Source: an uncultured Solirubrobacteraceae bacterium (GTDB lineage Bacteria > Actinomycetota > Thermoleophilia > Solirubrobacterales > Solirubrobacteraceae). Taken from it: DNA of 64,000 nucleotides. Where the stretch lies: contig OY970237.1 of the NCBI GenBank assembly GCA_963715385.1, positions 2,334,610 through 2,398,609 on the forward strand. Direction: 5' to 3'. A program made the translations under genes and the position numbers. Positions 3,990 through 52,438 of the stretch are shown here, piece after piece. The notes beneath the pieces were generated by a model. The model saw only the letters and a program-made list of their open reading frames with translations, made no database searches and was not told the DNA's origin. The number at the start of each line of letters is the position of its first letter. Position 1 is the stretch's first letter.

Positions 3990-4763
3990 ATGAGCGACCT
4001 GTTCGACGTATCCGGCAAGACGGCGCTCGTGACGGGCGGCTCGCGCGGGATCGGGCTGATGATCTCCCGCGCGCTCGTGCAGGCGGGAGCGCGCGTGATC
4101 GTCTCCTCGCGCAAGACCCAGGACGTCGAGGCCAGCGCCGCCGAGCTCGCGAAGCTGGGCGACTGCGAGGCAATCACGGCCGACGTCTCGACTCCGCAGG
4201 GGGCTGCGGCACTCGCAGCGGCGACGCAGGAGCGCTTCCCTGCGCTTGACATCCTCGTCAACAACGCCGGGGCCGTGTGGGGAGCGCCGCTCGAGGAGTT
4301 CCCGGCCGGCGGCTGGGACAAGGTCCTGCACACGAACGTCGAGGGCGTCTTTCACCTGACGGTCGCGCTGCTCGGCGCGCTGCGCGCGTCGGCCAGCGAG
4401 GAGGACCCGGCGCGCGTTATCAACATCGGCTCGATCGACGGCCTGCGCACACCGCCGGTCGAGAACTACAGCTACAGCGCCAGCAAGGCGGCCGTGCACA
4501 TGCTCACGCGCCACCTCGCCAAGCGCCTGGCATCGGAGCACATCACCGTCAACGCGATCGCCCCCGGTCCGTTCCCGAGCAAAATGATGGCCGTGCTCGA
4601 GGACCCGGAGTGGCGCGCGCGGATCGAAGAGGAAGTCCCGCTCAGGCGTGTCGGGCGTCCCGACGACATCGCGGGGCTGACGCTGCTGCTCGCCTCCCGC
4701 GCAGGCTCCTTCCTCACGGGGACCGTGATCCCGCTCGACGGCGGCATCACCGGGTGTGGGTAG
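3990..4763 (+). CDS. Short-chain dehydrogenase/reductase
   Basis: TGGSRGIG, NNAG, YSASK; 2 nt after upstream stop. Confidence 0.9.
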   Translation: MSDLFDVSGKTALVTGGSRGIGLMISRALVQAGARVIVSSRKTQDVEASAAELAKLGDCEAITADVSTPQGAAALAAATQERFPALDILVNNAGAVWGAPLEEFPAGGWDKVLHTNVEGVFHLTVALLGALRASASEEDPARVINIGSIDGLRTPPVENYSYSASKAAVHMLTRHLAKRLASEHITVNAIAPGPFPSKMMAVLEDPEWRARIEEEVPLRRVGRPDDIAGLTLLLASRAGSFLTGTVIPLDGGITGCG

Positions 4764-7982: not shown

Positions 7983-8474
7983 ATGCCAATGCTCGACGCG
8001 TACATACCCGAGGGAGCGCTGACGGACACGGCCGAGGCGAAGCTGCTGAGCGAGTTGACTGACATCCTCATCGTCAACGAGGGCGCGGACCCCTCCAATC
8101 CGCAGGTTCGCTCGATCGCCTGGCTGTTCGTGCATCGTCCCGAGGCGGTCTACGTCGCCGGCGCGCCCGCCGTCGCTCCCCACTACCGCTTCATCGCCTC
8201 AGTCCCGGAGGGTCAATACGAGCCCGAGCGTCGTGAAGCGATGGTGAGCACGATCACCGAGGCCGTGCTCGATGCCGAGGGCGGCGCCTACGAGCGCGAC
8301 CCGGGCCGCGTGTGGGTCTTTACGCCCGAGGTGCCCGATGGCACTTGGGGTGGATTCGGGCGGATCGCAACGCTCGCGGACATCGCGACGCTCGCCACGG
8401 GCGATCCGGAGCGCGGGCGCCGGTATGCCGAGGAACGCCTCGGTGGACGGCGCGCGGTGGCGGCGATGGCCTGA
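7983..8474 (+). CDS. Tautomerase superfamily protein
   Basis: N-terminal Pro after Met (MPMLDAYIPEG); VWVF.PEVPDG.WG. Confidence 0.7.
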   Translation: MPMLDAYIPEGALTDTAEAKLLSELTDILIVNEGADPSNPQVRSIAWLFVHRPEAVYVAGAPAVAPHYRFIASVPEGQYEPERREAMVSTITEAVLDAEGGAYERDPGRVWVFTPEVPDGTWGGFGRIATLADIATLATGDPERGRRYAEERLGGRRAVAAMA

Positions 8475-8486
8475 GGTAGCGCCCAT

Positions 8487-8519
8487 GGATCACCGGCGAC
8501 TCGCGCCCGCCGGTGATCC
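8487..8519. terminator. 12-bp perfect hairpin after tautomerase gene
   Basis: GGATCACCGGCG-N9-CGCCGGTGATCC. Confidence 0.45.
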
Positions 8520-8554
8520 GCCTACGGCCAGTTGACTGCGTCAAGCTGACGGGC

Positions 8555-9868
8555 ATGGGAAACCTTGCCCAGCAGCTGCGTGTACTGCGCCACCGCGACT
8601 TTCGCTACCTGTGGCTCGCCCAATCGGCGAGCGTGATCGGCGACTGCATCGTGATCGTCGCGCTGGCGCTGTTCGTGATCGAACTCACGGGCTCGGCGAC
8701 CGACCTCGGGCTGGTGCTGGCCGCCGCGAGTCTGCCACTGGTGGCGTTCCTGCTGATCGGCGGCGTGTGGGCGGATCGCCTCGCGCGCCATCGCGTGATG
8801 ATCGTGACCGATCTCGTGCGCTTCACGCTGCACGCGCTGCTCGCGGCGCTGATCTTCACCGGGGAGATCGAGATCTGGCAGCTGATCGTGATCGAGGCGC
8901 TGTTCGGCACGGCCGAGGCGTTCTTCCGCCCGGCCGCGAACGGGCTGCTCCCGCAGACGGTGCCCGAGACCGAGATCCAGGCGGCCAACGGGCTCAGCTC
9001 GCTGTCGAACAACATCGGCGAGTTCGCCGGACCGGCGCTCGCGACCGCGCTCGTCCTGGGGCTCGGCGCGGGTTGGGCGTTCGCGCTCGACGCGGGCACG
9101 TTCCTGCTCAGCGCCACCCTGCTCGCGCGTGTGCGCCCGCGCCGCCGGGCGACCGCGGCCGGCGCTGAAAGCACTATGGCCAAACGGCTCAGCGTGTGGA
9201 CCGACATTCGTGAGGGCTCGCGCGAGGTGCGCTCGCGCGCCTGGGTGTGGGCCACGCTCGCGGCGTTCTGCGCCGCCCTGTTCACCGCCCTGGCGCCGTG
9301 GTTCGTGCTCGGGCCGGTCGTCGCGCGCGAGCAGTACGGCGACATCGGCGTCTACGGGATCGTCGCCGCCGCGCTCGGCATCGGCACGATCGTCGGCTCG
9401 CTGTGGGGAACCGCCTGGCGCCCTCGCTACCCGATGCGTGCGGCGATGCTCGCGATCCTGCTATGGCCCGCCTCGGCGATCATGTACGCAGCAGGCGTGA
9501 CGCTCTTCGCCGTGATCCCCACGATCGTGATCGGCGGCATCGGCATCGCGCTGTTCGACGTGTGGTGGACGACGGCGCTGGCCGAGCGGATACCGCCCGC
9601 CAAGCTCTCGCGCGTCAGCTCCTATGACTGGATGGTCTCACTCGCGCTGCTGCCGCTCGGCTACGTGCTGGCCGGCCCGCTCGCGCACGCGCTGGGCGCG
9701 GTCGAGGTGCTGCTCGGCGGCTCGGCGCTCGGCTGCCTGGCGCTCGCCGCGGGGCTGCTGCCAAGGGAAACGCGGATGCTCGAGCGGCTCGACGACGGCG
9801 ATCACCCCGCCGGCGAGGCTCCGGCGGCAGCAGGCGAGCCGCTTCCCGGCTTCGCCCACTGGTCCTGA
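8555..9868 (+). CDS. MFS transporter (DHA3/MefA-like)
   Basis: LRHRDFRYLW, GGVWADRLARHR, about 12 hydrophobic segments. Confidence 0.88.
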   Translation: MGNLAQQLRVLRHRDFRYLWLAQSASVIGDCIVIVALALFVIELTGSATDLGLVLAAASLPLVAFLLIGGVWADRLARHRVMIVTDLVRFTLHALLAALIFTGEIEIWQLIVIEALFGTAEAFFRPAANGLLPQTVPETEIQAANGLSSLSNNIGEFAGPALATALVLGLGAGWAFALDAGTFLLSATLLARVRPRRRATAAGAESTMAKRLSVWTDIREGSREVRSRAWVWATLAAFCAALFTALAPWFVLGPVVAREQYGDIGVYGIVAAALGIGTIVGSLWGTAWRPRYPMRAAMLAILLWPASAIMYAAGVTLFAVIPTIVIGGIGIALFDVWWTTALAERIPPAKLSRVSSYDWMVSLALLPLGYVLAGPLAHALGAVEVLLGGSALGCLALAAGLLPRETRMLERLDDGDHPAGEAPAAAGEPLPGFAHWS

Positions 9869-41176: not shown

Positions 41177-41480
41177 CCGCCCAGAATTTTCTTGTCGACG
41201 TGTGCGGCCTGGCCGCGCTGGGTGCGGGCGTGCCTGAGCTTGCGCTGGAGGCCGGAGTGGCCGGGGCCTTCCAACGGTATCGAGCCAGGACATCCACAAT
41301 GAGGGCGCGCACGTGTGGACGTCTGGCGATGGCCGACGAGCTCACCGGCTGGGCACGCTTCCCTACGCGAGGACAGGCGTTCGCGCACGCCGGGGTCAAC
41401 GGTGCTAACGGGACGATTCTCGAAACATGACTCTGACTGGGAACAAATCCGCGAGCTGCACTCCCTGCGCTACACCGAAC

Positions 41481-41715
41481 CTACGCGGCCCGATCTGACG
41501 CGGCCCGGATAAGCGACCTTACGACCTCGCCCGGCCTCTCGCCCTGATTGCGCGCGATCTCCTGTAGCGCAGCTGCATCATCGCCGTCGAGCGTGAACTG
41601 CACGACGAGATGGCGGTCGCGAGAGGCCTCCGCAACCCGCATGTCCACAGGATCTCAGATCTTCTAGCTCCTGATCGAAGTCTCCGGGTAGCGGATCAAT
41701 ATCTGACGGAGTCAT
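41481..41715 (-). pseudogene. Putative antitoxin (RHH-like C-terminus), +1 frameshift near 41655
   Basis: MTPSDIDPLPGDFDQELEDL then DPVDMRVAEASRDRHLVVQFTLDGDDAAALQEIARNQGERPGEVVRSLIRAA; 235 nt = 78 codons + 1; ATGA overlap with toxin. Confidence 0.55.
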
Positions 41716-42023
41716 GACTTCTCCAAGATCATACGCTCGACGGGCGTTGAAGCCCACCCCGTAATGAGAAGCCACGTCGTTGGCTCAACCGTCTCCTCAA
41801 TCACCAGCGTCAGTCGCCGACCACCATCGTTGCGTCCGATCAGCAGCCTGCGCAGTTCGCGCTGACTGCGCCGAGCACTGCCCCGTCGATTCCTGATCAG
41901 CACGTGCCGATTCCAGATCGCCTGCTGCGCTTCGGCGGCCGAGATTCCACGAACTCCCAACTTGTCGAGAGCGACCTCCGTGGCGAGCAACTGATTGACG
42001 ACATCCGACACACCTCCAAACAT
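41712..42023 (-). CDS. BrnT/DUF497-like toxin
   Basis: KLGVRGIS..EA, LLIGRNDGGRRLTLV, LITGW; start may be GTG 42011. Confidence 0.6.
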   Translation of the reverse strand: MFGGVSDVVNQLLATEVALDKLGVRGISAAEAQQAIWNRHVLIRNRRGSARRSQRELRRLLIGRNDGGRRLTLVIEETVEPTTWLLITGWASTPVERMILEKS

Positions 42024-42300
42024 GAACGCTGCTTGGGACGCTTTAGCGGTGCGATCAGACGCACCGCGCTGGCGCCTACCGCTCTCGCTCCCATCACGGT
42101 CGGAGTTCGAATAACGGCCTCACACCCGGCCAAAACGGGGAGATCGGGACGACTTGCGAACCCCGTCCTAGACCGCTTTCTTGAGCATCTCATGGAGCCA
42201 GTCGGTCGGCAAGCGCGGCGGCGGGCGGCAGAGGCCATCCGAAGCCGTGGCCGGAGCGATTTGGCTCGACCAACGAGTAGACGCGCATAAGCTGGTAGCG

Positions 42301-43518
42301 GTGTCCCCGCTGCTATTCGACGAGGTCGTGCGCACGGATGGCTCCCCTGGGCTTCGGTCCGAGGACAGCTTCAGCTTCCTGAACAGGGCTCACGGCATCG
42401 TTTGCCGCCGCATCCGCGACCAACTGGACCGTTGGTACGCGGCGTTTCCTGATGAGGACGGCGATCTCCGTCGTCGCTATCGCTCCCGAGATCCTCGACA
42501 GCACTACGCGGCTTGGTGGGAGTTGTATCTGCACACCCTGCTGACGACTCTGGGCTATGACCTGACCGTGCACCCCGAGATACTGGGGCACAAAGGTCGT
42601 CCCGATTTCCTGGCGGAGCGCGAGGGCGAGTCCTTCTACGTCGAGGCCGTGACGGTGTTCTCGGGGATTGTTGATCGGAGCCGACGAGAAGCGCTTGAGG
42701 CGGCCGTACTCGATGTAGTCGACGCGGTCGATTCGTCGCGCTTCATGGTTCGCATCGGTTTGGAGCGAGTAGGACAGTCGATGCCTACTACGAGGTCGAT
42801 CGTGGAGCCGATCGAAACGTGGCTGGCGACCCTTGATGTCGATGACATCCTCACGAAATATCCGGGCGGGTACTCGCCCGAAAAGAAGCGCATTGCCTTT
42901 GCAGACTGGGTGGTCGAGTTGAGTCCGATCGCTCGGGCACCAGAGCATCGAGGCTGCCCCGACAATCTGCTTATCGGTATAGGCCCTAGCTCGGGTGGCT
43001 ATACGAACGACGTCCAGCAGATTCGGCGTGCGGTGACGCGGAAGAAGAAACAGCTCGGAAGGCCAGACAAGCCCCTGGTTGTAGCTGCACTCGCCCCGAG
43101 CGGGACCGTCGACAACTGGGTTATCGAGAACGTGCTGTTCGGCAGCGAAGCGGTGCGCATCGGACCGTCGGGTGCCACGTCAATAGGTCGTAGTCCGGAT
43201 GGCATTTGGATCGGCAAGCGCGGGCCTGCCACGAAACGAATGTCGGCGCTCCTTATCGGCGTCGCGATTGTGCCACATACCTGCGCAACGGCGTGGCCGA
43301 CTTTGTGGCACCACTTCGATCCGACCCACGCGCTAAATGCGGACCTGCCGTTTTCCTCAACGCGCGTCGTCGACGAAAGGCTCGTCGTCGAGGACGCAAA
43401 GCTTTCTGCGTCGCAAGTCCTCGATCTGCCCGTTGACTGGCCTGGACCCGAGCCGGCTTTCCCGCGCTGCCAGCATCGGCCCGGGGATCACTCCGTACCG
43501 TCAGATCGGTCGGCATAA
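42301..43518 (+). CDS. Hypothetical protein with PD-(D/E)XK-like nuclease motif
   Basis: WWELYLH...GRPDFLAEREGESFYVEA; start uncertain (42181 or 42301). Confidence 0.55.
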   Translation: MSPLLFDEVVRTDGSPGLRSEDSFSFLNRAHGIVCRRIRDQLDRWYAAFPDEDGDLRRRYRSRDPRQHYAAWWELYLHTLLTTLGYDLTVHPEILGHKGRPDFLAEREGESFYVEAVTVFSGIVDRSRREALEAAVLDVVDAVDSSRFMVRIGLERVGQSMPTTRSIVEPIETWLATLDVDDILTKYPGGYSPEKKRIAFADWVVELSPIARAPEHRGCPDNLLIGIGPSSGGYTNDVQQIRRAVTRKKKQLGRPDKPLVVAALAPSGTVDNWVIENVLFGSEAVRIGPSGATSIGRSPDGIWIGKRGPATKRMSALLIGVAIVPHTCATAWPTLWHHFDPTHALNADLPFSSTRVVDERLVVEDAKLSASQVLDLPVDWPGPEPAFPRCQHRPGDHSVPSDRSA

Positions 43519-43521
43519 GAC

Positions 43522-44079
43522 ATGAAGCCCGATGAGAATGCCGTGCCTCATGTCATCGAGCCAATCTCCCGCGAGGATTGGGAGCAACGCCAGGTCTATG
43601 CGAAGTTCGGCCTAGCGATCTATTGCTGCCAATGCCTTGAGTCTCAGCTAGTCAATTACCTCGCTCTGCTGCGTCGAATAAAGACAGGCCGCCCAATGAC
43701 GGGTGATGAGATCGATGCGCTTTTTGACCGCTTGTTCGGCGGCACATTCGGCCGGAATCTCAAGGAAGTCCGCAATCTGCTCGGGGATCAGTGGGCTATG
43801 GCCGAGGAGCTGACGTCAGCGCTCAACCTGCGCAACCAGTTGGTACATCACTGGATGAGAGATCGTGCGCTTGAGCAGGGTACGAGCAGAAAGCGTCGCG
43901 CGATGGTGGACGAGCTCGATGAAGTCATCGAGCAGCTTGAGACCATTGACGCGAAGCTCACGGAGACCACACGGCACCTGCAAGACAGAGCTGGCATACC
44001 CCGATCACTCATCGACAGGGAGTACGAGGAGCTACGTCGCATCGCCGACAGCGATGAACCCACAACCTCGACGACGTAA
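43522..44079 (+). CDS. HEPN-like all-helical protein
   Basis: Q.LE motif and Rx4H (RNQLVH). Confidence 0.55.
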   Translation: MKPDENAVPHVIEPISREDWEQRQVYAKFGLAIYCCQCLESQLVNYLALLRRIKTGRPMTGDEIDALFDRLFGGTFGRNLKEVRNLLGDQWAMAEELTSALNLRNQLVHHWMRDRALEQGTSRKRRAMVDELDEVIEQLETIDAKLTETTRHLQDRAGIPRSLIDREYEELRRIADSDEPTTSTT

Positions 44080-44132
44080 GCTAGCGTTCAACGCCGGAAC
44101 TGATTGCCGGTCGCTGCTGCCAGACTGCGCCA

Positions 44133-44897
44133 ATGGCGTCGGGCCGAAAGCGGACGAGAAGCAATCGACAGGCGGGGAGCGCTAGGGCCAAGCCCCACGA
44201 TCCGAGGATGTCCGGCACCCAGGTCGCCGCCGACGCTGACGAAGGCATCAAAAAGGGCGACTGGCTCGTCGTCGTGTCCCCGGTGAACCTAGACGACGGT
44301 GGCCGGTTGCTGTGGTGGCCGCCGCAGCCAGTCGCCTTCAACCTGCTCGAAGCTAAGCGCCACCGTGATCGCGGCGTTCGCCAGCGTCGGCGCATCATGG
44401 GGAACCTCGTCGCCCGGCCAGACGGTAGCGGCTTGCAGCCATCGAATGCTCACGCTGCTCTCGACTGTCTTTCCGAACTCGCCGCTGCGGTCCTGTTCTC
44501 TTTCACGGCGGTCGAGAGCTTGGCGAACCACGCCATCGAGTCGCTACCTGATGACACGGTTGTCACGCTCCGAAAAGGACGCCAGCTTCCCAAGGCAGAA
44601 CTGGTCGCCAACGTCGGGGTCGACGAAAAGCTCAAGCGAATCGTCCCGCTGGCCGACGGCGGAAAAGACGTAGCTAGCACTGTTATCTGGCAGCGCTATC
44701 GAGCACTCAAGTTTCTCCGCGACGAGCTAGTGCATGTCAAGGCGCGCGGGTACGACCCCGATCCTGACGTCAGAACCGCATACGACCGTCTCATGGTCGG
44801 CGAGGGCGACGGATGCGTAGAAGATGCGCAAACCGTCATCGAGGGCGCGTTCCCAGCATTCCTACCAGCACACGTACTCGCTGCGCTCGCAGCCTAG
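44133..44897 (+). CDS. HEPN-like protein
   Basis: F.AVESLAN motif and Rx4H (RDELVH). Confidence 0.55.
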   Translation: MASGRKRTRSNRQAGSARAKPHDPRMSGTQVAADADEGIKKGDWLVVVSPVNLDDGGRLLWWPPQPVAFNLLEAKRHRDRGVRQRRRIMGNLVARPDGSGLQPSNAHAALDCLSELAAAVLFSFTAVESLANHAIESLPDDTVVTLRKGRQLPKAELVANVGVDEKLKRIVPLADGGKDVASTVIWQRYRALKFLRDELVHVKARGYDPDPDVRTAYDRLMVGEGDGCVEDAQTVIEGAFPAFLPAHVLAALAA

Positions 44898-45051
44898 CCC
44901 TCGCCCACGTCGCACAATCGGCGATGCGCGACGTCGCACGGCGCGTACTCGTCATCGACCGCATCAAACGGTATCGCTGAGTCAATAAGCCGGAAATCTC
45001 TGGCAGATCACCGCAGACCGTCAAGCTGCTATGGCCCAATAGCGGACGGCA

Positions 45052-46050
45052 TCAACTATCCTGGCTAGTAACAACCCCAATAGTTGATATCGAAGTCGGA
45101 TAGGCCACTCCACCCAGCGCCGGCAGCGCTGCAACAATATCGTCACGCTGCGCATCGCGGGCGGTGATCGCGAACATACATCCACCTTCACCTCCCCCGG
45201 TCAACTTAGCGCCTGCAGCTCCCGCGTGAAGGCTAGCGTCAACCATTTCGTCAATCTGCCGCGTTGAGCTTCCCATGAGCCCGGCTATTGCGTGATGACA
45301 AGCCGTCACATCCTGTGCAACAGCGAAAAGCTCTTCGTTCTTAGCGAGAGCATCTGCCATCTCGCACACCAGCTCCGCAGTTTGCCTCTGATACTCCATA
45401 ATAGAAACGTCGCGCAACCTAAAGCGCTCTCGCTTTTTCGCAATGCTATGTGCGGTCGCTGCTCGTACGCCCGAATCACCGACCACAATCACAGCTCGCA
45501 CATTGGGAAAATCTAGTACCGACACCTGTTTTTCATTTTCAAAGTGAGTCAAGCGAGTACCACCAAGGCCGCATGACCAAAAATCCATTTCACCGGCACC
45601 GGTGCGGAGCCGCTCGATCTCGGCACGGAACGCAAGTTCACAAAGAGCTTCTTTCGTTAGCAGATGACCAAGCTCGCCAGCAACGGCCGCGATAGTCGCG
45701 ATAAGACAGGCGGCGCTACTAGCAAGACCAGCAGCGATCGGGAGTGTGCTCGTCAGTGCTATTTTTCCTGCGAAATGGCCAAACTCTGAGCTTGCACAGG
45801 CAAGCGCAGCTGCTGGGAAATCGAGCTCGTCGTCTCTCCGATCGGCCGCATCTGCGATCCGAAACGTTCGCTCTACACCGACCGGCCATCCGGAGGACAG
45901 CACGACCATCCCGTTGTTATCACTAGGTTCTATTTCCGCAACCGCTGTTACCGCGAGATCGATCGCTGCTTGGAGGGTACTGCCCCCCATCCAGTCGAGA
46001 TCCTCGCCACCAAGACAGATCCTTCCTGGGCACTTTGCGCGCGTTGGCAT
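45052..46050 (-). CDS. GHMP kinase (galactokinase/mevalonate kinase-like)
   Basis: PGRICLGGEDLD, LPIAAGLASSAA, GAKLTGGGEGG. Confidence 0.85.
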   Translation of the reverse strand: MPTRAKCPGRICLGGEDLDWMGGSTLQAAIDLAVTAVAEIEPSDNNGMVVLSSGWPVGVERTFRIADAADRRDDELDFPAAALACASSEFGHFAGKIALTSTLPIAAGLASSAACLIATIAAVAGELGHLLTKEALCELAFRAEIERLRTGAGEMDFWSCGLGGTRLTHFENEKQVSVLDFPNVRAVIVVGDSGVRAATAHSIAKKRERFRLRDVSIMEYQRQTAELVCEMADALAKNEELFAVAQDVTACHHAIAGLMGSSTRQIDEMVDASLHAGAAGAKLTGGGEGGCMFAITARDAQRDDIVAALPALGGVAYPTSISTIGVVTSQDS

Positions 46051-46065
46051 ACCTTATTTGTAAGG

Positions 46066-46503
46066 CTAAGACGAGTAGTCCTCGTCAACCACCTTGTCGT
46101 TCTTGATCTTCTCGTGCTTGTCTTCCCCACTAAGCACTAGTCGAAATACCACAAACGTCGCATCCTCGTCAGCGACATTTGCGAAGGTATGCACGCTACG
46201 CCCAACGCGGACGACATCACCACTGCCGATCGTCTCGCACTTAGTTGTTCCCCTATTCCGCCATCTCACCTCCAGCTCACCCTTGAGTACCAAGACCGTC
46301 TCCTCAATAGCTTCATGGTGGTGCCACTGCTGCACCGTACCTGGCGCGATCTCATTGAAGTGAAGCTCGTACTCAGCAAAAATGTAGTAACTAACCTTGG
46401 TGCCTTCACCCTTGTCCACATCAATTGCCTGGGTTCGCCTCACGATCTCCACTGAGTCGCCTGGGTCTTTTACGGCACTATCGTATCTCGGGATGTCACT
46501 CAT
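46066..46503 (-). CDS. Cupin domain protein
   Basis: WHHHEAIEETVLVLKGEL and VHTFAN motifs. Confidence 0.85.
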   Translation of the reverse strand: MSDIPRYDSAVKDPGDSVEIVRRTQAIDVDKGEGTKVSYYIFAEYELHFNEIAPGTVQQWHHHEAIEETVLVLKGELEVRWRNRGTTKCETIGSGDVVRVGRSVHTFANVADEDATFVVFRLVLSGEDKHEKIKNDKVVDEDYSS

Positions 46504-47636
46504 ATGAACATGTCGTAATCGTCCACATTACGTGTCGGCTCTCCATCGATCAACCACTGATTGGACTGATGCCTGATACAACTAAAGGAGCAGTCCCGTG
46601 ACGGGTTTACACGCTTTGCCGCTGCCAAGCGCGCGTTAGAGGTCCACATTTCACGAAAACCTTCTGTTGACGGATCGCCATACCGTGCGGAGGCGTTCCC
46701 ACGATGATAGGGGCACAAGTACGCGCCCGACGGGGTGAGCAGTGTCCGAAGCTCAACTGTGGGGCAATGATGATATGTCTTCGGCTCATCAAGTCGTTCA
46801 TCGGCGATTACTTTGTCAAGATGTGCAGGTGCAATTACATTGAAGGCCTCGCATTGAATATCGGCCGCAGCGGCAAGTTCGTCTATCAGAAGTTCACGTA
46901 GCTCACGGGGTTGGGCGACGAGTCGATGATTGAGGTCATACTCGGGCTTGAACTCGATGTAGTCGCATCCGATATCTCGCGCTAGGTGCGCCGCAGCCGC
47001 AACCTCGTCAAAGTTATGGTGGAGAATTGTTTTGCCTCTACGGGCGCGCCGCGCGATGAGTAGAAAGGAGTAACCAAGTGAACCGCGCCGATCGCGCGCC
47101 AGTGATCTGACGTTCTCGACCACCTCGGCAAAAGTGTCGCGCGTGCCACCGCGGCGCGGGCGAAACAAGTTGTAGGTGGCTGCAGACGCCGCATCGACGG
47201 AGACACGTGTCCATTCGACGTATCGCGCAACCACATCATGATGACGGTTCAACTGGGTGCCGTTTGTAGTAAGACCAACGGCAACATTTGCCTCTGCAAA
47301 CGCCTCGATGACGTCAGCGACCACTGGATGTAGCAACGGCTCCCCGCCGCCAATCAGGATCACAGCGCGAACACCGACCTCGCAGATCTCGGCGGCGAGC
47401 TCCAATAGTCTCTCGTTGGAGAACCGGCCGCGGTTCAAAAGCGAGCCACTGATGCACTCCGGGCAGGCCAGGTCACAGAACGTTGTCACATCGAGCTCAA
47501 CGACGGTCGGGGCGGCTAGTGACTTGCCCTCACGTACCTTCCCTACCTCTAGCGATAGCGAGCGCTGGTGAAGCTTCTCCGCGAGAGCGAGCCTTGAGCG
47601 GTGGTCGACTCGAGCTGACACGGACTGTACGATCAT
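46500..47636 (-). CDS. Radical SAM protein with SPASM/twitch domain
   Basis: CDLACPEC, GGGEPLL, TTNG, RVSVD; C-terminal CPT...CPY...C...C. Confidence 0.9.
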   Translation of the reverse strand: MIVQSVSARVDHRSRLALAEKLHQRSLSLEVGKVREGKSLAAPTVVELDVTTFCDLACPECISGSLLNRGRFSNERLLELAAEICEVGVRAVILIGGGEPLLHPVVADVIEAFAEANVAVGLTTNGTQLNRHHDVVARYVEWTRVSVDAASAATYNLFRPRRGGTRDTFAEVVENVRSLARDRRGSLGYSFLLIARRARRGKTILHHNFDEVAAAAHLARDIGCDYIEFKPEYDLNHRLVAQPRELRELLIDELAAAADIQCEAFNVIAPAHLDKVIADERLDEPKTYHHCPTVELRTLLTPSGAYLCPYHRGNASARYGDPSTEGFREMWTSNARLAAAKRVNPSRDCSFSCIRHQSNQWLIDGEPTRNVDDYDMFI

Positions 47637-48187
47637 TATTCGCTCCGTTCGGGGTCGTGCCTTAGTTTAAGTGATATCGGGGCAAAAAGCTCCGCCCAGT
47701 CGCGGGGATCGTCACCAGAGGTGTCCACGCAGCCCAGAGTGTCCAAATGCAGATTGAGCGGCATCATTGCGCGCAGATCGGTCGCTACTGCCTCACGTTC
47801 GGCTTCGTCAAGGGAGCCATAGATCGCGCTTAGATGCGGAAGATAGGGACGCGCTTGCTTGTGGCGCAAGGCGCGCCCACAGGCAGATCGGACGGCAAGT
47901 AGTGGCGCAGTCGCAGGGCATACGAAGAAGACACATTGGTAATAGGCTGTCGTATGCTCGACCGAATCGACTTGCAGGTCGATCGGCAGCTGGTCACAGG
48001 CGATCTCATCTAGAAGGCGCTCCACGTCGGCGATGTTAGCGGCGTCGCCGTTCCCGATGACGGTGACGTGAGGCGGAAATGGAGGGGTCCCGTGGGCAGC
48101 GGATAGCCGGTTGATGACCGCGGCGAGCTTGTCGGCCTGCTCTGCGCATGGGCGTAGCCATATCGAGAGTGCTCGGCTGGAAGTCAT
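47636..48187 (-). CDS. 2H phosphoesterase / cyclic phosphodiesterase
   Basis: PPHVT and LPHLS motifs; TAATG coupling to radical SAM gene. Confidence 0.85.
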   Translation of the reverse strand: MTSSRALSIWLRPCAEQADKLAAVINRLSAAHGTPPFPPHVTVIGNGDAANIADVERLLDEIACDQLPIDLQVDSVEHTTAYYQCVFFVCPATAPLLAVRSACGRALRHKQARPYLPHLSAIYGSLDEAEREAVATDLRAMMPLNLHLDTLGCVDTSGDDPRDWAELFAPISLKLRHDPERSE

Positions 48188-48224
48188 TCCACGCCTGCAA
48201 ACATATCGAGCTGGCATCGCTCCA

Positions 48225-48821
48225 TCAGATAAGGCCGAGCAAGTGTGCCGCGCCAAGCACTGCGGACACCGCTACTGCGCTGGTCGCGAAGTTTTGAAGT
48301 CCGGATGCGAGCAAGTCGCGCACACTGGGACCAGTTGTTTCCATCGCCCGGTGTTTGGTAAGGGGGTTGCGAGCCGGCGCATTTTTCGGTTCCGGGTCGA
48401 CGATCCCAAACCATACGCTCCCAAGGAGGAGTCCGCGCTCGATACGAACAGCCTTCTTCCCAGCATTGAAGACTGTGGGCTTGATCTGCCCCTCGAAGTT
48501 CGGATCGACCTTGAGGTTAGCGACGAGCAGTCCGTTGGCCGCCTGCGATGTCTTCGAACATACCTGCCCGAACACATTCTTGGGCGTTTTGATTTTCTCG
48601 TCAACCTCAATGCGCACGCACTCGCCGGGCTTTAGTGCGAAGCCCTTCTCTCCTATATCCTGCTCGCCGCCGAAATCGACCTCGTAGACCTCTCCGACAT
48701 GGAGATCGAGCGCGACACGCTCTGGCCCCTTCAACATCTTCTTGATCAGATCAACGTCCTCGTCCCGAGCACTTTCGACAGTGATTTCAGCTTTTCCCCA
48801 GCACTCAATAGGAATGATCAC
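48225..48821 (-). CDS. dCTP deaminase/dUTPase-fold protein with C-terminal hydrophobic helix
   Basis: DLHVG, LKPGE, SKTS, VDPNFEG, VFNAG; tail FATSAVAVSAVLGAAHLLGLI. Confidence 0.7.
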   Translation of the reverse strand: MIIPIECWGKAEITVESARDEDVDLIKKMLKGPERVALDLHVGEVYEVDFGGEQDIGEKGFALKPGECVRIEVDEKIKTPKNVFGQVCSKTSQAANGLLVANLKVDPNFEGQIKPTVFNAGKKAVRIERGLLLGSVWFGIVDPEPKNAPARNPLTKHRAMETTGPSVRDLLASGLQNFATSAVAVSAVLGAAHLLGLI

Positions 48822-49056
48822 TCACGGCCCCTCCAGTTAGCCTCTGCCGAGCTTGCCGCCTGACGCCTAGCAGATCTGAATGTCGGAATAATAGCCGCTG
48901 ATGATCTTCAGCGCATCCCTGGAGTCGCCCTGTCAGTCTCGGTGCTCGCCTGTCGCACAAGTGCCATTCGGCGGCGGGCATTCTCCCGTAGGCCGTAGCG
49001 CAGTATTGCTGCGTGGTGGCCTACGGGATCAGCCGTATGCGCTTCGGGTTCGATGG

Positions 49057-49317
49057 TTAGACGACGCGCCCGCCTTGTAGCTCGGTGTAGCGGATCGCTT
49101 GCCGAGTGGCGAAGATGAATCCGTCGACCGTTCGGTGGATGAGCCCCGCTCGGCGCAGAGACCCCAGGGCGTCGTCTGCGTCGATTGAATCCCCGACCTC
49201 GCGGCCTATCTCGTCGGGGGACCAAATGGATTGCTCGGAGGGCTCGACTAGGAGGTGCAGGACTGCTAGCTCAACGGCGTCGAAGCGTTCGGCAGGTGTA
49301 CGCTCGTCATCGGACAT
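49057..49317 (-). CDS. Small winged-helix-like protein, paralog A
   Basis: GREVGDSIDADDAL..L...GLIHR...FIFATR.AI. Confidence 0.65.
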   Translation of the reverse strand: MSDDERTPAERFDAVELAVLHLLVEPSEQSIWSPDEIGREVGDSIDADDALGSLRRAGLIHRTVDGFIFATRQAIRYTELQGGRVV

Positions 49318-49466
49318 GGGAGATCATTCCTCTCTTGTCTCGGGCCTCGGCGCGGTGTCAGCCGCGTCGAGGCCACTTGGTTTTCGGAGCGCCCGAAGCT
49401 AGGTCTGTGCTGCGTGAGCGGTCAACGTGTGCGGCGGCCGCCGCGGACGGTCACGCTGACCCGCGC

Positions 49467-49718
49467 CTACCAAGTCGCGCCAAAGAGGTCGTGCAGGTGG
49501 ATGGCGGCGCGGGTGGGGAAAACGTAGTCGCCCTGGCGATGGATGAGCCCGACGTCGGAGAGGACGCGCATGGCGTCGAGGGCGACGATCAGGTCGCCGA
49601 CGTGGCGGCCAAGTTGCTCGACCGTGTACCAGTCCTCACCGGCCCACAGGACGAGCATGAGGATTTGCCGTTCAAAGTTCGACGGCACGTCGTCATAGTC
49701 GAGGGCAGTCTTTGTCAT
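49467..49718 (-). CDS. Small winged-helix-like protein, paralog B
   Basis: GRHVGDLIVALDAM..L...GLIHR...YVFPTR.AI. Confidence 0.65.
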   Translation of the reverse strand: MTKTALDYDDVPSNFERQILMLVLWAGEDWYTVEQLGRHVGDLIVALDAMRVLSDVGLIHRQGDYVFPTRAAIHLHDLFGATW

Positions 49719-49786
49719 GGCCCAGGACGGTAGGCCAGCGGGGGACGGCGGAACAAGGTGTGGGACGAGGCGCGGGCCCGCTTCGG

Positions 49787-50146
49787 TCAGCGGGGTTTAC
49801 GACGACCGGCCACCGATGCCTCGATGCGCTCCATGCCGCTACGGATCGCGGCAAGCTCGGAAAGCACGCGCTGCTCGAAGGCACCGCTTCCGGCCTCGCG
49901 GCCAGCGATCCGCATCAGCTCGAGGCGGTCGGCGCTAAGCACCTCGGCCAGCCGCTCTATGACCTCATCGCCGGGCGGCCCGTAATCGCCGACCTCGACC
50001 CTCGACAAGTGACCAGGGCTCATCGGTAGCTGTTCGGCTACCTCGCGTTGAGTCGGCTTCTTCTCGCGGCGTAGGGAGCGGATGCGTTCGCCGAAGGCGA
50101 CGGCACGCTCGGCTTGGGATTTGGGGCGTCGTGCAGGCGCCACCAA
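49787..50146 (-). CDS. XRE family HTH regulator (5' end possibly altered)
   Basis: FGERIRSLRRE...TQREVAE....SPGHLSRVE.G. Confidence 0.8.
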   Translation of the reverse strand: MVAPARRPKSQAERAVAFGERIRSLRREKKPTQREVAEQLPMSPGHLSRVEVGDYGPPGDEVIERLAEVLSADRLELMRIAGREAGSGAFEQRVLSELAAIRSGMERIEASVAGRRKPR

Positions 50147-50403
50147 GCGCCGCTACAACCAAGCGTTCTTCCAGAAGCTCTACGTGACGCCCGAATGGGA
50201 TGAGCAGCAAGGCCAACTGGTCGCCCGGATCACCAAGGCCGAGCTGACCGAGCCCTATGCGCTGCTTCTGGCCGACGACTTGGCCGAGGGCGTACTGGCC
50301 GAGGCTGAGGCCATCACGGCCCAGGCCAACGCCGAAAGGGCTTCAGACAGCCAGATTGGCTATCCGAAGCCCTTTGCTGTCGCGTGTTCATACTTCGTGA
50401 AGA
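50134..50403 (+). pseudogene. C-terminal remnant of a large serine recombinase
   Basis: KRRYNQAFFQKLYV tail motif pointing at the tRNA 3' end; no catalytic domain; family call from recall. Confidence 0.55.
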
Positions 50404-50495
50404 TGGCGGAGAGGGCGGGATTCGAACCCGCGATGGAGTTTGACCCCCATACTCGCTTAGCAGGCGAGTGCCTTCAGCCACTCGGCCACCTCTCC
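50404..50495 (-). tRNA. tRNA-Ser(GCT), CCA encoded
   Basis: GGAGAGG acceptor, CTCGC-CTGCTAA-GCGAG anticodon arm, long variable arm, GGTTCGAATCC. Confidence 0.97.
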
Positions 50496-50565
50496 CGGGA
50501 ATAGGGGTGCCAGTGTAGAGACTGACAAGCCCTGCCGAGAGACCACGTAGCATCTGAGGCCCTCC

Positions 50566-50655
50566 GGAAGGGTGGCAGAGCGGTTGAATGCGGCGGTCTT
50601 GAAAACCGTTAGGCGGGCAACACCCGTCTCGGGGGTTCGAATCCCCCCCCTTCCG
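50566..50655 (+). tRNA. tRNA-Ser(TGA), CCA not encoded
   Basis: GGAAGGG/CCCTTCC acceptor, GCGGT-CTTGAAA-ACCGT anticodon arm, GGTTCGAATCC. Confidence 0.97.
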
Positions 50656-50807
50656 TCCCGCGTCTAGTGGCCCCTCATGGCGACATCGCGTGTCGCATGT
50701 CCGGGTAGAGCTTGATCTGACGATCGTCTGCGAGCCCGGCCCAGGGTGGCGAGTCATCGGGTCGATTCCGGAGGTCGCTGGGGTCTCAGCCGGGGCCGCG
50801 GGTTGCG

Positions 50808-51254
50808 TCAGAGATGGTGGGGCGCTGCTGCAAGCAGCGGCGTAATGCGAGTTACGAGTGTGATTGCCTCATTGGTAGCCGCGGCTGCCTTGATGGTCGT
50901 CCAGAGCTTGCGGACCTTCTGCCCATCGGGTGCCTGGGCCTGGGTCTCGTCAGCGAGTCGCGCCGCGGCCCGCTCGGCCTCGGTCGCGCCCTCGTTGTCG
51001 AAGACCTGCCGAAGCTGAGCGAGCAGCTCCGCGAGCTGCGGCAAGTCTCCGCCCAGCGCGCGGGCGCCTATGGCAACCGAGGTGCTGTCGGCTCGCGCGC
51101 CGGCACCAATCGCCGTGCCGCCCTTGTTGCTGAGCACGTTGCCGTTTGGGTCGGCCAGCGTATAGATCGTGTTCCCGTCACCCATCGAGGGAACCGGCCC
51201 TGCGCCCACGTACGTATTCTCGTTGCCGATCCTCGGGGCATCGCCGCTCGTCAT
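50808..51254 (-). CDS. Hypothetical protein with AIGxxAxA repeats and helical C-terminus
   Basis: TAIGAGARADSTSVAIGARA; amphipathic helices. Confidence 0.55.
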   Translation of the reverse strand: MTSGDAPRIGNENTYVGAGPVPSMGDGNTIYTLADPNGNVLSNKGGTAIGAGARADSTSVAIGARALGGDLPQLAELLAQLRQVFDNEGATEAERAAARLADETQAQAPDGQKVRKLWTTIKAAAATNEAITLVTRITPLLAAAPHHL

Positions 51255-51372
51255 TTCCCTGCCATGATATGTGACGAGGCGGCGAGGCTCATCGGATTGC
51301 CGCCAAGCACAGCCTCGCGTGTAGCGCGTAACACACTGGCGTGATGTCGGGCCAGCGATTCGTGTGCGGCGA

Positions 51373-52002
51373 CTAACGGCCACAGCACTTCTTGTACTTC
51401 CGACCCGAGCCGCACGGACAGGGGGCATTGCGCCCAGGTTTAGTTTCGTGCGTGACCGCTGGTGGATCGTCCTGATGGCTACGGAAGTCTTCAAGGGCTT
51501 GCTCGACCGCTCGCTGTAGCTCGCTATGGACGATCGCGTCGTTTCGCTGGATCGCGTGCTCAACAGTCGCACTAGTCGCCGAGTGATCGCGGGATTCGGC
51601 TACCAGCTGCGCGGTGAGTATCACGAGCGCTTGGAGCAGCACCCATATAAAGGCTTGCCTTGCGCTGATCGGAACGCGCTCAAGAAGGCGGCCGAGTACC
51701 GGGGCGTCCTCTGCGATGCGTGCGGCTGCCTCCTCCATCGGGAGCGTGCCGTCATTTGCTTGCCGGGCAATCCCTGCGAACCGTTGAAGCAGCTCCCGAT
51801 CAAGACGAGTGGAACGCAGAGCCTCGAAAACGCCATCGCGAACGTTGAACTCGCCCTCGACGATACGGGCTGCTCCACCGCATCTTGGACAGGACTCGAC
51901 GTTGTTTTCGAGGACCAGGTGCCGCACGTAGCCCTCTACGACGATTCCACGCCCCTCGAATGTGTATCCGCATTGAGTGCAATGCGCCGGCAGTCCAACC
52001 AT
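51373..52002 (-). CDS. Zn-ribbon plus SEC-C motif protein
   Basis: CTQC...CPRC; KPGRNAPCPCGSGRKYKKCCG. Confidence 0.8.
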   Translation of the reverse strand: MVGLPAHCTQCGYTFEGRGIVVEGYVRHLVLENNVESCPRCGGAARIVEGEFNVRDGVFEALRSTRLDRELLQRFAGIARQANDGTLPMEEAAARIAEDAPVLGRLLERVPISARQAFIWVLLQALVILTAQLVAESRDHSATSATVEHAIQRNDAIVHSELQRAVEQALEDFRSHQDDPPAVTHETKPGRNAPCPCGSGRKYKKCCGR

Positions 52003-52135
52003 AAGAACTACACGCTACTCATTGCCGGGAAACGTCATCCGAAGCGCCGGGCGTGCAGCTCTTGTATTCGTTGCCAGCCGAGCGCATGTTTCGAGAGTCG
52101 TCCCGTCAAGCCCCGCTGCCGAGGCAAGGATCCGC

Positions 52136-52438
52136 TCAATACGGACCGAATCGGCGCGGCTGTTGCAGCAGCTCGCGGATTCTCTGAAGCACGAGACGGG
52201 CGAGGACGATCGCCGAGAAGGCGAGCACCAGCGTGACGGCGTACAGGTAGGCGAGCGAGACGATCAGGACACCGGCGAAGCCGGCCACGTCTCCGGCGCG
52301 TTCGCCGAGCCACCAGAACGGAAACGCCAAGCCGACGATTGTGGCCGCCATCACCAGCACCAGCGCGAGCAGATGGTAGAGCCGGTAGCCGGTCCAGCGA
52401 CGAACCAGCCAGTAGATCGGAGCGCCCAGACCGTGCAT
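52136..52438 (-). CDS. Small membrane protein
   Basis: Two long hydrophobic segments. Confidence 0.55.
   Translation of the reverse strand: MHGLGAPIYWLVRRWTGYRLYHLLALVLVMAATIVGLAFPFWWLGERAGDVAGFAGVLIVSLAYLYAVTLVLAFSAIVLARLVLQRIRELLQQPRRFGPY

Follow-up and report, generated by a model that had tools for sequence, protein, structure and literature searches.

A predicted membrane-anchored branch of the Dcd/dUTPase fold without deaminase residues heads a conserved five-gene operon

We analysed a 64,000-nucleotide stretch of the genome of an uncultured Solirubrobacteraceae bacterium (GenBank assembly GCA_963715385.1, contig OY970237.1; hereafter the window, meaning the whole stretch, whose positions are used below). 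It contains a gene, here called DCD-TM, for a protein in which a Dcd/dUTPase-fold domain lacking the deaminase residues is joined to a predicted C-terminal membrane helix. DCD-TM and its relatives form a new, predicted membrane-anchored branch of this fold, and the gene opens an operon of five genes that recurs at other loci. The evidence comes from sequence, from structure prediction and from five or six loci that carry the cassette. The reading that fits it best, which we put forward tentatively, is that DCD-TM would be a nucleotide-gated, non-deaminating membrane sensor or effector in a mobile defence candidate.

Fold and loss of the deaminase residues

The open reading frame (ORF) at 48225–48821 on the minus strand is a real gene encoding 198 amino acids and ending in a TGA stop. 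It starts at a GTG codon (48821), with the Shine–Dalgarno sequence GGAGG (48830–48834, minus strand) 8 nucleotides ahead, and its N-terminus, IIPIECW, agrees with the MIIPIEHW of homologues; on these two grounds the gene call is sound. The protein matches the Pfam family DCD (PF22769, E 3e-9) and, weakly, dUTPase (PF00692, 20.6 against a cut-off of 22). Its scores for the NCBIfam equivalogs lie at 42.9 bits against a cut-off of 92.8 for dcd (TIGR02274) and at 23.2 against 102.55 for dut (TIGR00576). An AlphaFold2 (AF2) model built from six sequences (predicted local distance difference test (pLDDT) score 80) has a beta-barrel core, disorder at residues 155–165 (pLDDT <50) and a helix at residues 167–197. 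Foldseek paired this model with the T. pacificus dUTPase (8y1w; probability 1.0, E 1.4e-10, target-normalised TM-score (TMt) 0.81) and, also with probability 1.0, with E. coli Dcd and bifunctional DCD-DUT; entries 2j4h and 1xs1 were among the matches at this probability. PF22769, AF2 and Foldseek together define the core as residues 1–145 (48387–48821, minus strand). These matches bear out the Dcd/dUTPase fold assigned in a preliminary description of this stretch, which was made from the sequence without database searches.

Residues were mapped by phmmer alignment of DCD-TM to E. coli Dcd structures. GRSSLARLG of Dcd pairs with SKTSQAANG of DCD-TM (R110 to K90, S111 to T91 and R115 to A95), and IDPGWSGCIVLEFYN pairs with VDPNFEGQIKPTVFN (D128 to D106 and E138 to T116). 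The preliminary description, comparing with E. coli Dcd, had reported loss of the catalytic Arg (GRSSLAR to SKTSQAA), loss of the catalytic Glu (IVLEF to IKPTV) and retention of the dUTPase-type Asp (VDPNFEG), and the alignment reproduces all three. In the gene, a motif I-like ERVALDLHV (48696–48722, minus strand) lies within the beta-barrel core, the motif II-like CSKTSQAANG (48531–48560, minus strand) contains K90 and S92 and places A95 at the position of Dcd Arg115, and motif III, KVDPNFEGQIKPTVFN (48465–48512, minus strand), contains D106 within KVDPNFEG, T116 at the position of Dcd Glu138 and the invariant N119. The pocket residues present are D39, S89-K90-x-S92, K104-x-D106-P107, N119 and R151. 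As judged from its sequence, with Thr in place of Glu138 and Ala in place of Arg115, DCD-TM is unable to deaminate dCTP.

Deamination and hydrolysis need to be kept apart. Searched against the PDB, the family profile scored highest with two archaeal Dcd-lineage dUTPases, 8y1w (E 5.5e-16; titled 'T. pacificus dUTPase complexed with dUMP') and 9ln0 (E 4.9e-15; 'thermostable enzyme dUTPase P45'). PMC3950489 cites the T. pacificus enzyme as characterised as a dUTPase (Cho et al. 2012). In the alignment, 8y1w and 9ln0 read VDPGWDGNLTLMLFNAS, with Met at the Glu138 position. Because active archaeal dUTPases carry Met there, loss of the Glu excludes deamination but not dUTPase-type hydrolysis. The preliminary description's step from the lost Glu to a dead enzyme is therefore not supported as it stands, and the case is a caution against making that step within the Dcd/dUTPase fold.

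The archaeal dUTPases resemble DCD-TM in the beta-barrel, the motif III Asp and the absence of the Glu (Met there, Thr here). They differ in being soluble, in their size of about 155 amino acids, and in retaining LRSSLAREG, with both basic residues of motif II, and the lid PYRGNYQGS, where DCD-TM has SKTSQAANG and a linker followed by a transmembrane helix. The dUTPase of equine infectious anaemia virus (EIAV) retains GKSSMAKQG. The second basic position of motif II is thus Arg in 8y1w and 9ln0, Lys in the EIAV enzyme and Ala95 in DCD-TM, and the lid position of DCD-TM is taken by a basic linker, with the invariant Arg151, and the helix. Every characterised enzyme of the fold that was aligned keeps both the second basic residue and the lid. 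The C-terminal lid is needed by dUTPases for efficient catalysis. Because both features are lost, weak or absent turnover by DCD-TM is plausible; loss of the motif II basic residue and of the Y..YQ lid is suggestive of a non-catalytic protein, not proof of one.

In the main rival reading, a serious one if somewhat less likely than a sensor, DCD-TM would instead be an active, membrane-anchored (deoxy)nucleoside triphosphate ((d)NTP) pyrophosphatase of the Dcd-type dUTPase lineage, serving as a pathway step or as a sanitiser against a toxic nucleotide analogue of its neighbours. The active archaeal dUTPases at the head of the profile matches, which likewise lack the Glu, would be its closest models, and D106, K/R90, S92, D39 and N119 are strongly conserved. 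Hydrolysis by DCD-TM would have to proceed without the second motif II basic residue and the lid, both kept in Dcd, in the archaeal and EIAV dUTPases and in DCD2, a soluble Dcd described below, and in a protein whose hidden Markov model (HMM) scores lie far under the dut and dcd equivalog cut-offs.

A conserved C-terminal membrane helix

The core is followed by a basic linker, residues 146–175 (48297–48386, minus strand), which is the remnant of the C-terminal lid and contains the conserved R151 and the stretch of low pLDDT. Residues 176–198 (QNFATSAVAVSAVLGAAHLLGLI; 48228–48296, minus strand) then form a transmembrane-type helix according to AF2, hydropathy and family conservation. This segment contains no charged residues and has a Kyte–Doolittle hydropathy over 19 residues (KD19) of 1.84, an Eisenberg mean hydrophobicity (<H>) of 0.64 and a moment of 0.12, values that fall in the transmembrane rather than the amphipathic region. 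Taken alone, the tail of the window protein is moderately hydrophobic; its relatives reach KD19 values of 1.9–2.9, and <H> ranges over 0.61–0.89 with low moment. In E. coli Dcd the highest KD19 is 1.31, and nothing comparable to the segment is present.

The hydrophobic segment is common to all five close homologues, and 137 of the 145 full-length members (at least 25 residues past the core) carry a 19-residue segment with a Kyte–Doolittle value of at least 1.6. Lys and Arg together average 2.9 in the 15 residues before the segment and 1.2 after it. This conservation, together with the asymmetry in Lys and Arg, means that the tail is not a chance feature. The positive-inside bias indicates that the Dcd-fold core is cytoplasmic and the C-terminus outside. 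In 38 members the protein extends beyond the helix into Pro/Ser/Thr-rich tails. The helix sequence is conserved on one face (P176, T180, G/A181, T/S184, A187, S/A/T188 and A191–192), and this small-residue face points to helices that pack specifically and not to a passive anchor. A sanitiser of a soluble nucleotide pool would have no obvious use for an anchor with such a face, which weighs against an active pyrophosphatase.

The membrane helix at the end of the protein, predicted in the preliminary description, is thus backed by hydropathy, the AF2 helix at 167–197, family-wide conservation and the positive-inside bias. The accompanying statement that a hydrophobic helix replaces the C-terminal arm applies to the distal arm; the proximal arm is kept, with its conserved Arg151.

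The DCD-TM family

A word-indexed search of 5.8 billion proteins returned only five homologues, at 45–64% identity. A profile search of 1.84 billion cluster representatives reached 141 clusters (50% identity) at E≤1e-10 and 1,716 at E≤1e-3. We aligned the best 150 profile matches with six close sequences, which gave 154 members aligned at Asp106. The Glu138 position is occupied by T, G, A, P, S, V, L or C, and by Glu in 0/154; at the Arg115 position A, Q, F, S, E or Y are found, with K in six members and Arg in none of the 154. Asp106 is present in 145 and K/R90 in 149 of these sequences, and a lid motif of the Y..YQ type is missing from 152. Among 40 diverse members, G97, K104, D106, P107 and N119 are invariant and E34, D39, E75 and R151 rank next. 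These most conserved positions belong to motifs I–III of the nucleotide pocket, from which we infer that selection acts on the pocket and that it binds some nucleotide-like ligand. Together, these results establish the missing deaminase residues and the membrane tail as a family trait, not the accident of a single sequence.

Family members come from Actinomycetota, Gammaproteobacteria and Alphaproteobacteria at the least. A scan of GTDB genomes with the family alignment found a single locus, in a Solirubrobacteraceae metagenome-assembled genome, and a search of sequencing runs found one soil metagenome, with 6% of words. Only two distant members came from the plasmid search. Viral contigs and GenBank phages yielded no DCD-TM relatives, only canonical haloviral Dcd.

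Pfam, NCBIfam and JGI name the homologues 'dCTP deaminase' or 'dUTPase', as would suit an ordinary housekeeping dCTP deaminase or dUTPase with an artefactual hydrophobic tail. The residue mapping effectively excludes this: Glu138 and Arg115 are absent. The shortfall against both equivalog cut-offs, the conservation of the tail, the return of no more than five close homologues from 5.8 billion proteins and the low-GC island in which the gene lies also count against it.

A five-gene operon that recurs with an exchangeable first gene

DCD-TM opens a tightly packed, translationally coupled five-gene operon on the minus strand and is followed by genes for a 2H phosphodiesterase, a DesII/BlsE-like radical S-adenosylmethionine (SAM) enzyme, a cupin and a GHMP kinase, all four with intact catalytic motifs. 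The 2H phosphoesterase (183 amino acids; 47636–48187) carries the H-x-T/S motifs HVT and HLS; its start, ATG 48187, was set by comparison with L001, one of the homologous loci (numbered L001 onwards and each with its own coordinates). The ATG of the radical SAM gene (378 amino acids; 46500–47636) overlaps the 2H TAA by 1 nucleotide, and the enzyme has the cluster motif C54x3C58x2C61 and conserved C224, C291, C308, C349 and C353. An ATGA overlap with the radical SAM stop begins the gene for the Cupin_2 protein (145 amino acids; 46066–46503), which has His/Glu metal motifs. After a gap of 15 nucleotides comes the GHMP kinase (332 amino acids; 45052–46050), with a galactokinase-type N-terminal signature and the motif PIAAGLASSAA. 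That the remaining four genes of the operon all encode enzymes is a point in favour of an active pyrophosphatase.

The operon lies in a low-GC island of about 11 kb (approximately 41200–52400; 52–64% GC against about 69% in the flanks, and 67.7% for the whole window), with a tRNA-Ser(GCT) gene (50404–50495, minus strand) at its edge. The low GC content and the place beside a tRNA gene indicate horizontal transfer. Neither an integrase, in the island, nor an att-type repeat of the tRNA-Ser 3′ end, searched for across the window, was found.

The same order, DCD-TM–(2H)–radical SAM–cupin–GHMP kinase, is repeated in four metagenomic loci (L001, L002, L005 and L008), whose radical SAM enzymes are 64–69% and DCD-TM proteins 50–57% identical to those of the window. 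The 2H gene is optional, being intact in L001 and L002 but missing from L005 and L008; such a pattern would be expected if the enzyme degrades a signal in an accessory role. In L006 and L007 an otherwise identical cassette has as its first gene an unrelated protein of 215–230 amino acids with about five hydrophobic segments. This exchange of a polytopic membrane protein for DCD-TM fits a swappable membrane effector; a non-enzymatic-looking protein in its place is also a point against DCD-TM being an active pyrophosphatase. A gene for a TPR-repeat protein (231–243 amino acids; L006 9074–9769, L007 3303–4034) separates the radical SAM gene from the cupin gene in this variant only. L004 has the closest DCD-TM homologue (64% identity), which is followed by a B12-binding-type radical SAM gene (4022–4651), cut by the contig end, in place of the 2H and twitch-type radical SAM genes.

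Defence-type or mobile neighbours occur at four of the five cassette loci with usable flanks. L006 adjoins a cyclic-oligonucleotide-based anti-phage signalling system (CBASS) set (CD-NTase, Cap15 and SIR2), a PIN protein, a transposase and an integrase; L008 has an Mrr/type IV restriction-like protein and a NERD protein, and L002 a GajB-like helicase, a DNA methylase and many small ORFs. The context of L001 is ordinary chromosome (glycosyltransferase, HAD protein and sigma factor). In the window the cassette has a weak PD-T7-like ORF nearby. The comparison covers only five to six cassette loci, and members of the wider family often stand in ordinary contexts.

Other partners in the wider family

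DCD-TM members at 30–49% identity pair with 'p135', a protein of 130–170 amino acids and no known family, which has the conserved motifs D.R..A...GL.QL, WCPLAV and NP..G..G. Its gene lies downstream of DCD-TM in L003, L009 and L017–L023 and upstream in L012, L013 and L025 (for example at L003 6482–6901, L009 3673–4089, L012 5545–5952 and L017 8609–9058, and likewise in L018, L020, L021 and L023), and the two genes form a module that turns up in varied surroundings. A soluble Dcd of 176–180 amino acids, DCD2, is the partner in L010/L011 and L014, where its gene overlaps that of DCD-TM and lies downstream of it (pairs at L010 6001–7157 and L014 6001–7094). DCD2 retains KGSIARG, the Glu (TFEII/TLELL) and a YxGRYQ lid, and is probably an active deaminase. 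The L014 pair comes just after an intein-containing class II ribonucleotide reductase (RNR) and a TSCPD protein.

Distant relatives are found on plasmids of cultured organisms, Qipengyuania citrea (WP_301643153.1; L032 5216–6528) and Rhizobium leguminosarum (WP_025397813.1; L033 5422–6573). In both, Ser occupies the Glu position and a hydrophobic segment lies at the C-terminus, and each is preceded by a homologous partner of 137–174 amino acids (up137/174) with the motif RLKH..LHFAKY...ACEK.DHLE. The Q. citrea relative lies near RNR-beta, and that of R. leguminosarum near a uracil-DNA glycosylase (UDG) gene and an ImmA/helix-turn-helix (HTH) pair.

These two-gene modules stand in differing surroundings, which are not obviously defence islands. 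Pairings with a small protein or a Dcd, often outside evident defence islands and in three cases next to RNR or UDG genes, are equally compatible with a role in deoxynucleoside triphosphate (dNTP) metabolism. An active pyrophosphatase gains from them in particular: DCD-TM and soluble Dcd in L010 and L014 would make a plausible deaminase and dUTPase pair, with RNR adjoining in L014, and the plasmid relatives lie near RNR-beta and UDG.

Each subfamily has a tightly linked soluble partner, be it p135, DCD2, up137/174 or the cassette enzymes, and pairing with a second Dcd-fold protein suggests hetero-oligomers. Both facts would suit a passive membrane scaffold, in which a Dcd-fold trimer or heterotrimer recruits partners without any gating by ligand. 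We consider this improbable, given that a scaffold needs none of the pocket residues, and these (K104, D106, P107, N119 and G97, invariant in the 40 members) are the most conserved of the family.

Proteins of about 85 amino acids with the motif LIHR..D.VF.TRAAI form a further associated family, for which no Pfam or PDB match was found. Members lie at L002 7839–8460 and 14200–14445, L004 2905–3138 and L009 2674–2850. They stand directly upstream of DCD-TM in L002, L004 and L009, whether the DCD-TM gene is of the radical SAM or of the p135 type, and are probably a dedicated cognate regulator of DCD-TM. In the window, two small co-directional genes upstream of DCD-TM encode paralogous members of this family, of 86 (49057–49317, minus strand) and 83 amino acids (49467–49718, minus strand). 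PDB sequence searches with the 86-residue protein, the cupin and p135 found nothing.

The radical SAM enzyme and its relatives

The model of the radical SAM enzyme (378 amino acids, pLDDT 93) was closest in structure searches to DesII, a thymidine diphosphate (TDP)-amino-sugar deaminase (E 1e-14), and to BlsE, a cytosylglucuronate decarboxylase (TMt 0.70), which is also its best sequence match. Next came SPASM/twitch peptide maturases, MoaA, viperin and AbmM. A viperin homologue was rejected on a score of 36.5 bits against the cut-off of 180 for NF038283, with DesII and BlsE placed first by the fold search. Among defence-system models (PADLOC 2023), those for pVip matched weakly and only at residues 45–175, in the N-terminal half.

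The radical SAM family is wide, with 505 matches at E≤1e-10, many of them actinomycetal. In Streptomyces (L015 8001–11930 and L027 5531–12883), enzymes 43–47% identical accompany a GHMP kinase, a nucleoside diphosphate (NDP)-sugar epimerase/dehydratase and a sugar ABC transporter. L015 additionally has a NUDIX protein, and the syntenic Streptomyces set looks like a conserved unnamed pathway. In L016 an AMP-ligase neighbours a radical SAM relative. Full-length relatives, 38–40% identical, occur in three uncultured viral contigs of 110–137 kb (L028 7833–14125; L029 and L030 around 8000–9120). In L028 and L029 the gene stands beside those for a flavin adenine dinucleotide (FAD) oxidoreductase and an amino-acid:DNA transferase, and L028 also has a 5-hydroxymethyldeoxyuridine (5-hmdU) DNA kinase and a thymidylate-synthase homologue. 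The L028 set corresponds to the thymidine-hypermodification clusters that PMC8989533 describes, and the viral radical SAM cluster is an uncharacterised variant of such a cluster. The characterised radical SAM isomerase M6 gp53 belongs to a different, spore photoproduct lyase (SPL)-like family (PMC8989533). For this reason a gp53-type DNA isomerase was rejected as the phage relative, and cultured phages have no close homologue. On the strength of the DesII and BlsE matches and of the Streptomyces and viral hypermodification relatives, the radical SAM family would therefore act on nucleotide-linked or nucleobase-linked substrates.

These kinships could also mean that the cassette is a metabolic island for sugars or nucleotide sugars that has nothing to do with immunity, with DCD-TM as a membrane-localising or nucleotide-handling subunit (for cytidine or uridine nucleotides, for example). 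We regard this as unlikely. DesII (acting on a TDP-sugar) and BlsE (cytosyl-glucuronate) as closest structures, the galactokinase-type signature of the GHMP kinase, the sugar-related genes around the Streptomyces relatives in L015 and L027 and the ordinary chromosomal context of L001 would all be expected of such an island, and cupins include NDP-sugar epimerases and isomerases. The cassette, however, has no glycosyltransferase or nucleotidyltransferase, its neighbours are of defence or mobile type at four of the five loci with usable flanks, and its low GC content and tRNA-adjacent position indicate horizontal transfer; an optional 2H gene and a swappable first gene would be unusual for a fixed metabolic pathway. 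The NUDIX protein of L015 bears in addition on an active pyrophosphatase, as the nucleotide pyrophosphatase of that Streptomyces cluster.

The full-length radical SAM relatives inside phage thymidine-hypermodification clusters are the ground for a more specific, and long-shot, proposal of substrate-gated immunity. The radical SAM enzyme, cupin and GHMP kinase would convert a modified pyrimidine nucleotide specific to phage into a ligand that activates DCD-TM, and the 2H enzyme would switch the system off. Were this true, DCD-TM would stand for a new and widespread class of pseudo-enzyme membrane effector, with at least 140 clusters at 50% identity, and the pairings with p135, DCD2 and up137 would be further two-gene immune modules.

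A candidate nucleotide-gated membrane sensor

The nucleotide-gated sensor or effector that we tentatively favour builds on the observed fold, residue losses, predicted membrane helix, operon conservation, first-gene swap and genomic contexts. DCD-TM would be a tail-anchored protein whose cytoplasmic domain, of the Dcd/dUTPase fold, presumably forms a trimer and would bind a pyrimidine nucleotide without turning it over. The lid remnant would be joined through the basic linker (about 25 residues) to the transmembrane helix, so that occupancy of the pocket could pass to a helix bundle packed through its small-residue faces, with permeabilisation of the membrane or signalling as the putative outcome. 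The radical SAM enzyme, cupin and GHMP kinase would make a nucleotide-derived ligand, and the optional 2H phosphodiesterase would destroy it. In this role the horizontally mobile cassette would be a candidate anti-phage system.

The fold offers a precedent for switching. Staphylococcal phage trimeric dUTPases switch through ordering of a C-terminal segment. PDB entry 3zf3 describes a phage dUTPase in its title as a nucleotide-dependent switch; these proteins differ from DCD-TM in being soluble and catalytically active and in targeting a repressor, not the membrane. E. coli Dcd and DCD-DUT share with DCD-TM the fold, a motif I-like DLxxG, the motif III DP.(F/W).G and the proximal arm Arg. Unlike Dcd, DCD-TM has Thr for Glu138, Ala for Arg115 and Thr for Ser111, a score below cut-off and a predicted membrane anchor, and it is rare and island-borne.

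Cap15, the transmembrane effectors of Pycsar and proteins of the Cam1/Csx23 type resemble DCD-TM in joining a small soluble domain, putatively ligand-binding in DCD-TM, to transmembrane helices and in having possible ligand-making enzymes adjacent; DCD-TM cassettes also lie at some loci in contexts like the defence islands of such effectors, and in DCD-TM cassettes, as in nucleotide-signalling systems, the effector position is swappable. In contrast to Cap15, Pycsar and Cam1-type proteins, DCD-TM has another sensor fold and one C-terminal transmembrane helix rather than N-terminal transmembrane segments. Unlike nucleotide-signalling systems, its cassette includes no CD-NTase, cyclase, TIR or Cas10 partner and has no PADLOC match as such a system. 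The pVip systems are alike in having a radical SAM enzyme and a kinase in defence-island-like settings and in the weak HMM matches over the N-terminal half of the window's enzyme; the window cassette differs in its GHMP rather than nucleoside monophosphate (NMP) kinase and in the additional cupin, 2H enzyme and membrane protein. DesII, BlsE, AbmM and the viral thymidine-hypermodification clusters share the radical SAM enzyme, and the viral clusters (L028–L030) differ in having no Dcd-fold membrane protein, cupin or GHMP kinase. A defensive dCTP deaminase, which depletes dCTP as a single gene, does not fit: DCD-TM had no match to PADLOC models at E≤0.1, and the catalytic Glu is absent.

Several points weigh against the favoured reading of a nucleotide-gated sensor. 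PADLOC gave no match for DCD-TM, the 2H enzyme, the cupin or the GHMP kinase, nor for p135, DCD2 or the multi-transmembrane protein of L006, and no known signal synthase or infection-sensor domain was found in the cassette. A signal pathway of three enzymes would be unusual. The catalytic Asp of dUTPases is among the conserved pocket residues, and the closest relatives of known structure, which lack the Glu, are active dUTPases. No more than five homologous operons came to light. Distant members pair with p135, a soluble Dcd or another small protein in ordinary-looking neighbourhoods, three such pairs adjoining RNR or UDG genes, and the Streptomyces radical SAM relatives sit in clusters of sugar-transport and NDP-sugar-like genes. 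The preliminary description had likened DCD-TM to the dead-enzyme sensors of nucleotide-signalling immunity. Part of that comparison survives, in a non-deaminating, membrane-tethered protein with a mobile, defence-island-like context, possible ligand-making enzymes adjacent and a swappable first gene. Its dead-enzyme logic does not survive as stated, and the lack of an adjacent CD-NTase, cyclase or TIR protein, the lack of a PADLOC match and the distant pairs near RNR and UDG further weaken it.

To our knowledge, all Dcd/dUTPase-fold proteins are soluble nucleotide-pool enzymes, except for phage dUTPases that also signal. No description of a membrane-anchored Dcd-fold protein or of the five-gene cassette was found in PADLOC, Pfam, NCBIfam or the literature searched, and queries combining radical SAM and GHMP with cupin and dCTP deaminase, with defence, or with Nudix and epimerase, and dCTP deaminase-like or dUTPase-like with transmembrane, gave nothing relevant. 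The cassette may be a new kind of system, possibly anti-phage. A large unnamed branch of the fold opens two options, a new nucleotide-sensing membrane protein or a dUTPase-like activity at the membrane. The conserved mobile cassette, at some loci near known defence systems, is also a clonable candidate for an anti-phage mechanism that would work through non-viperin radical SAM chemistry.

Surrounding genes in the window

Further upstream of DCD-TM and in the same direction lies the gene for an XRE-type HTH protein of 119 amino acids (49787–50146, minus strand) with a weak capH-like PADLOC match. The tRNA-Ser(GCT) gene is one of a divergent tRNA-Ser pair inside the low-GC stretch, the other being tRNA-Ser(TGA) at 50565–50658 on the plus strand. 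An Rfam scan of 44000–51000 returned only two tRNAs and no riboswitch or leader element. Three co-directional ORFs (42181–44897, plus strand) adjoin the operon at its far end and may be a separate defence module. One encodes a protein of 445 amino acids with weak PADLOC matches to PD-T7-1/PD-T7-5 (E about 4e-6); the other two encode proteins of 185 and 254 amino acids with the R-x4-H (HEPN-like) motifs RNQLVH and RDELVH, identified by eye in the sequence, and only a weak CARF/HEPN match. Beyond the tRNA pair, and still inside the low-GC stretch, is a gene (51373–52002, minus strand) for a protein of 209 amino acids with N-terminal zinc-ribbon-like and C-terminal SEC-C motifs, which matches PADLOC PDC-S12 at E 1.6e-9.

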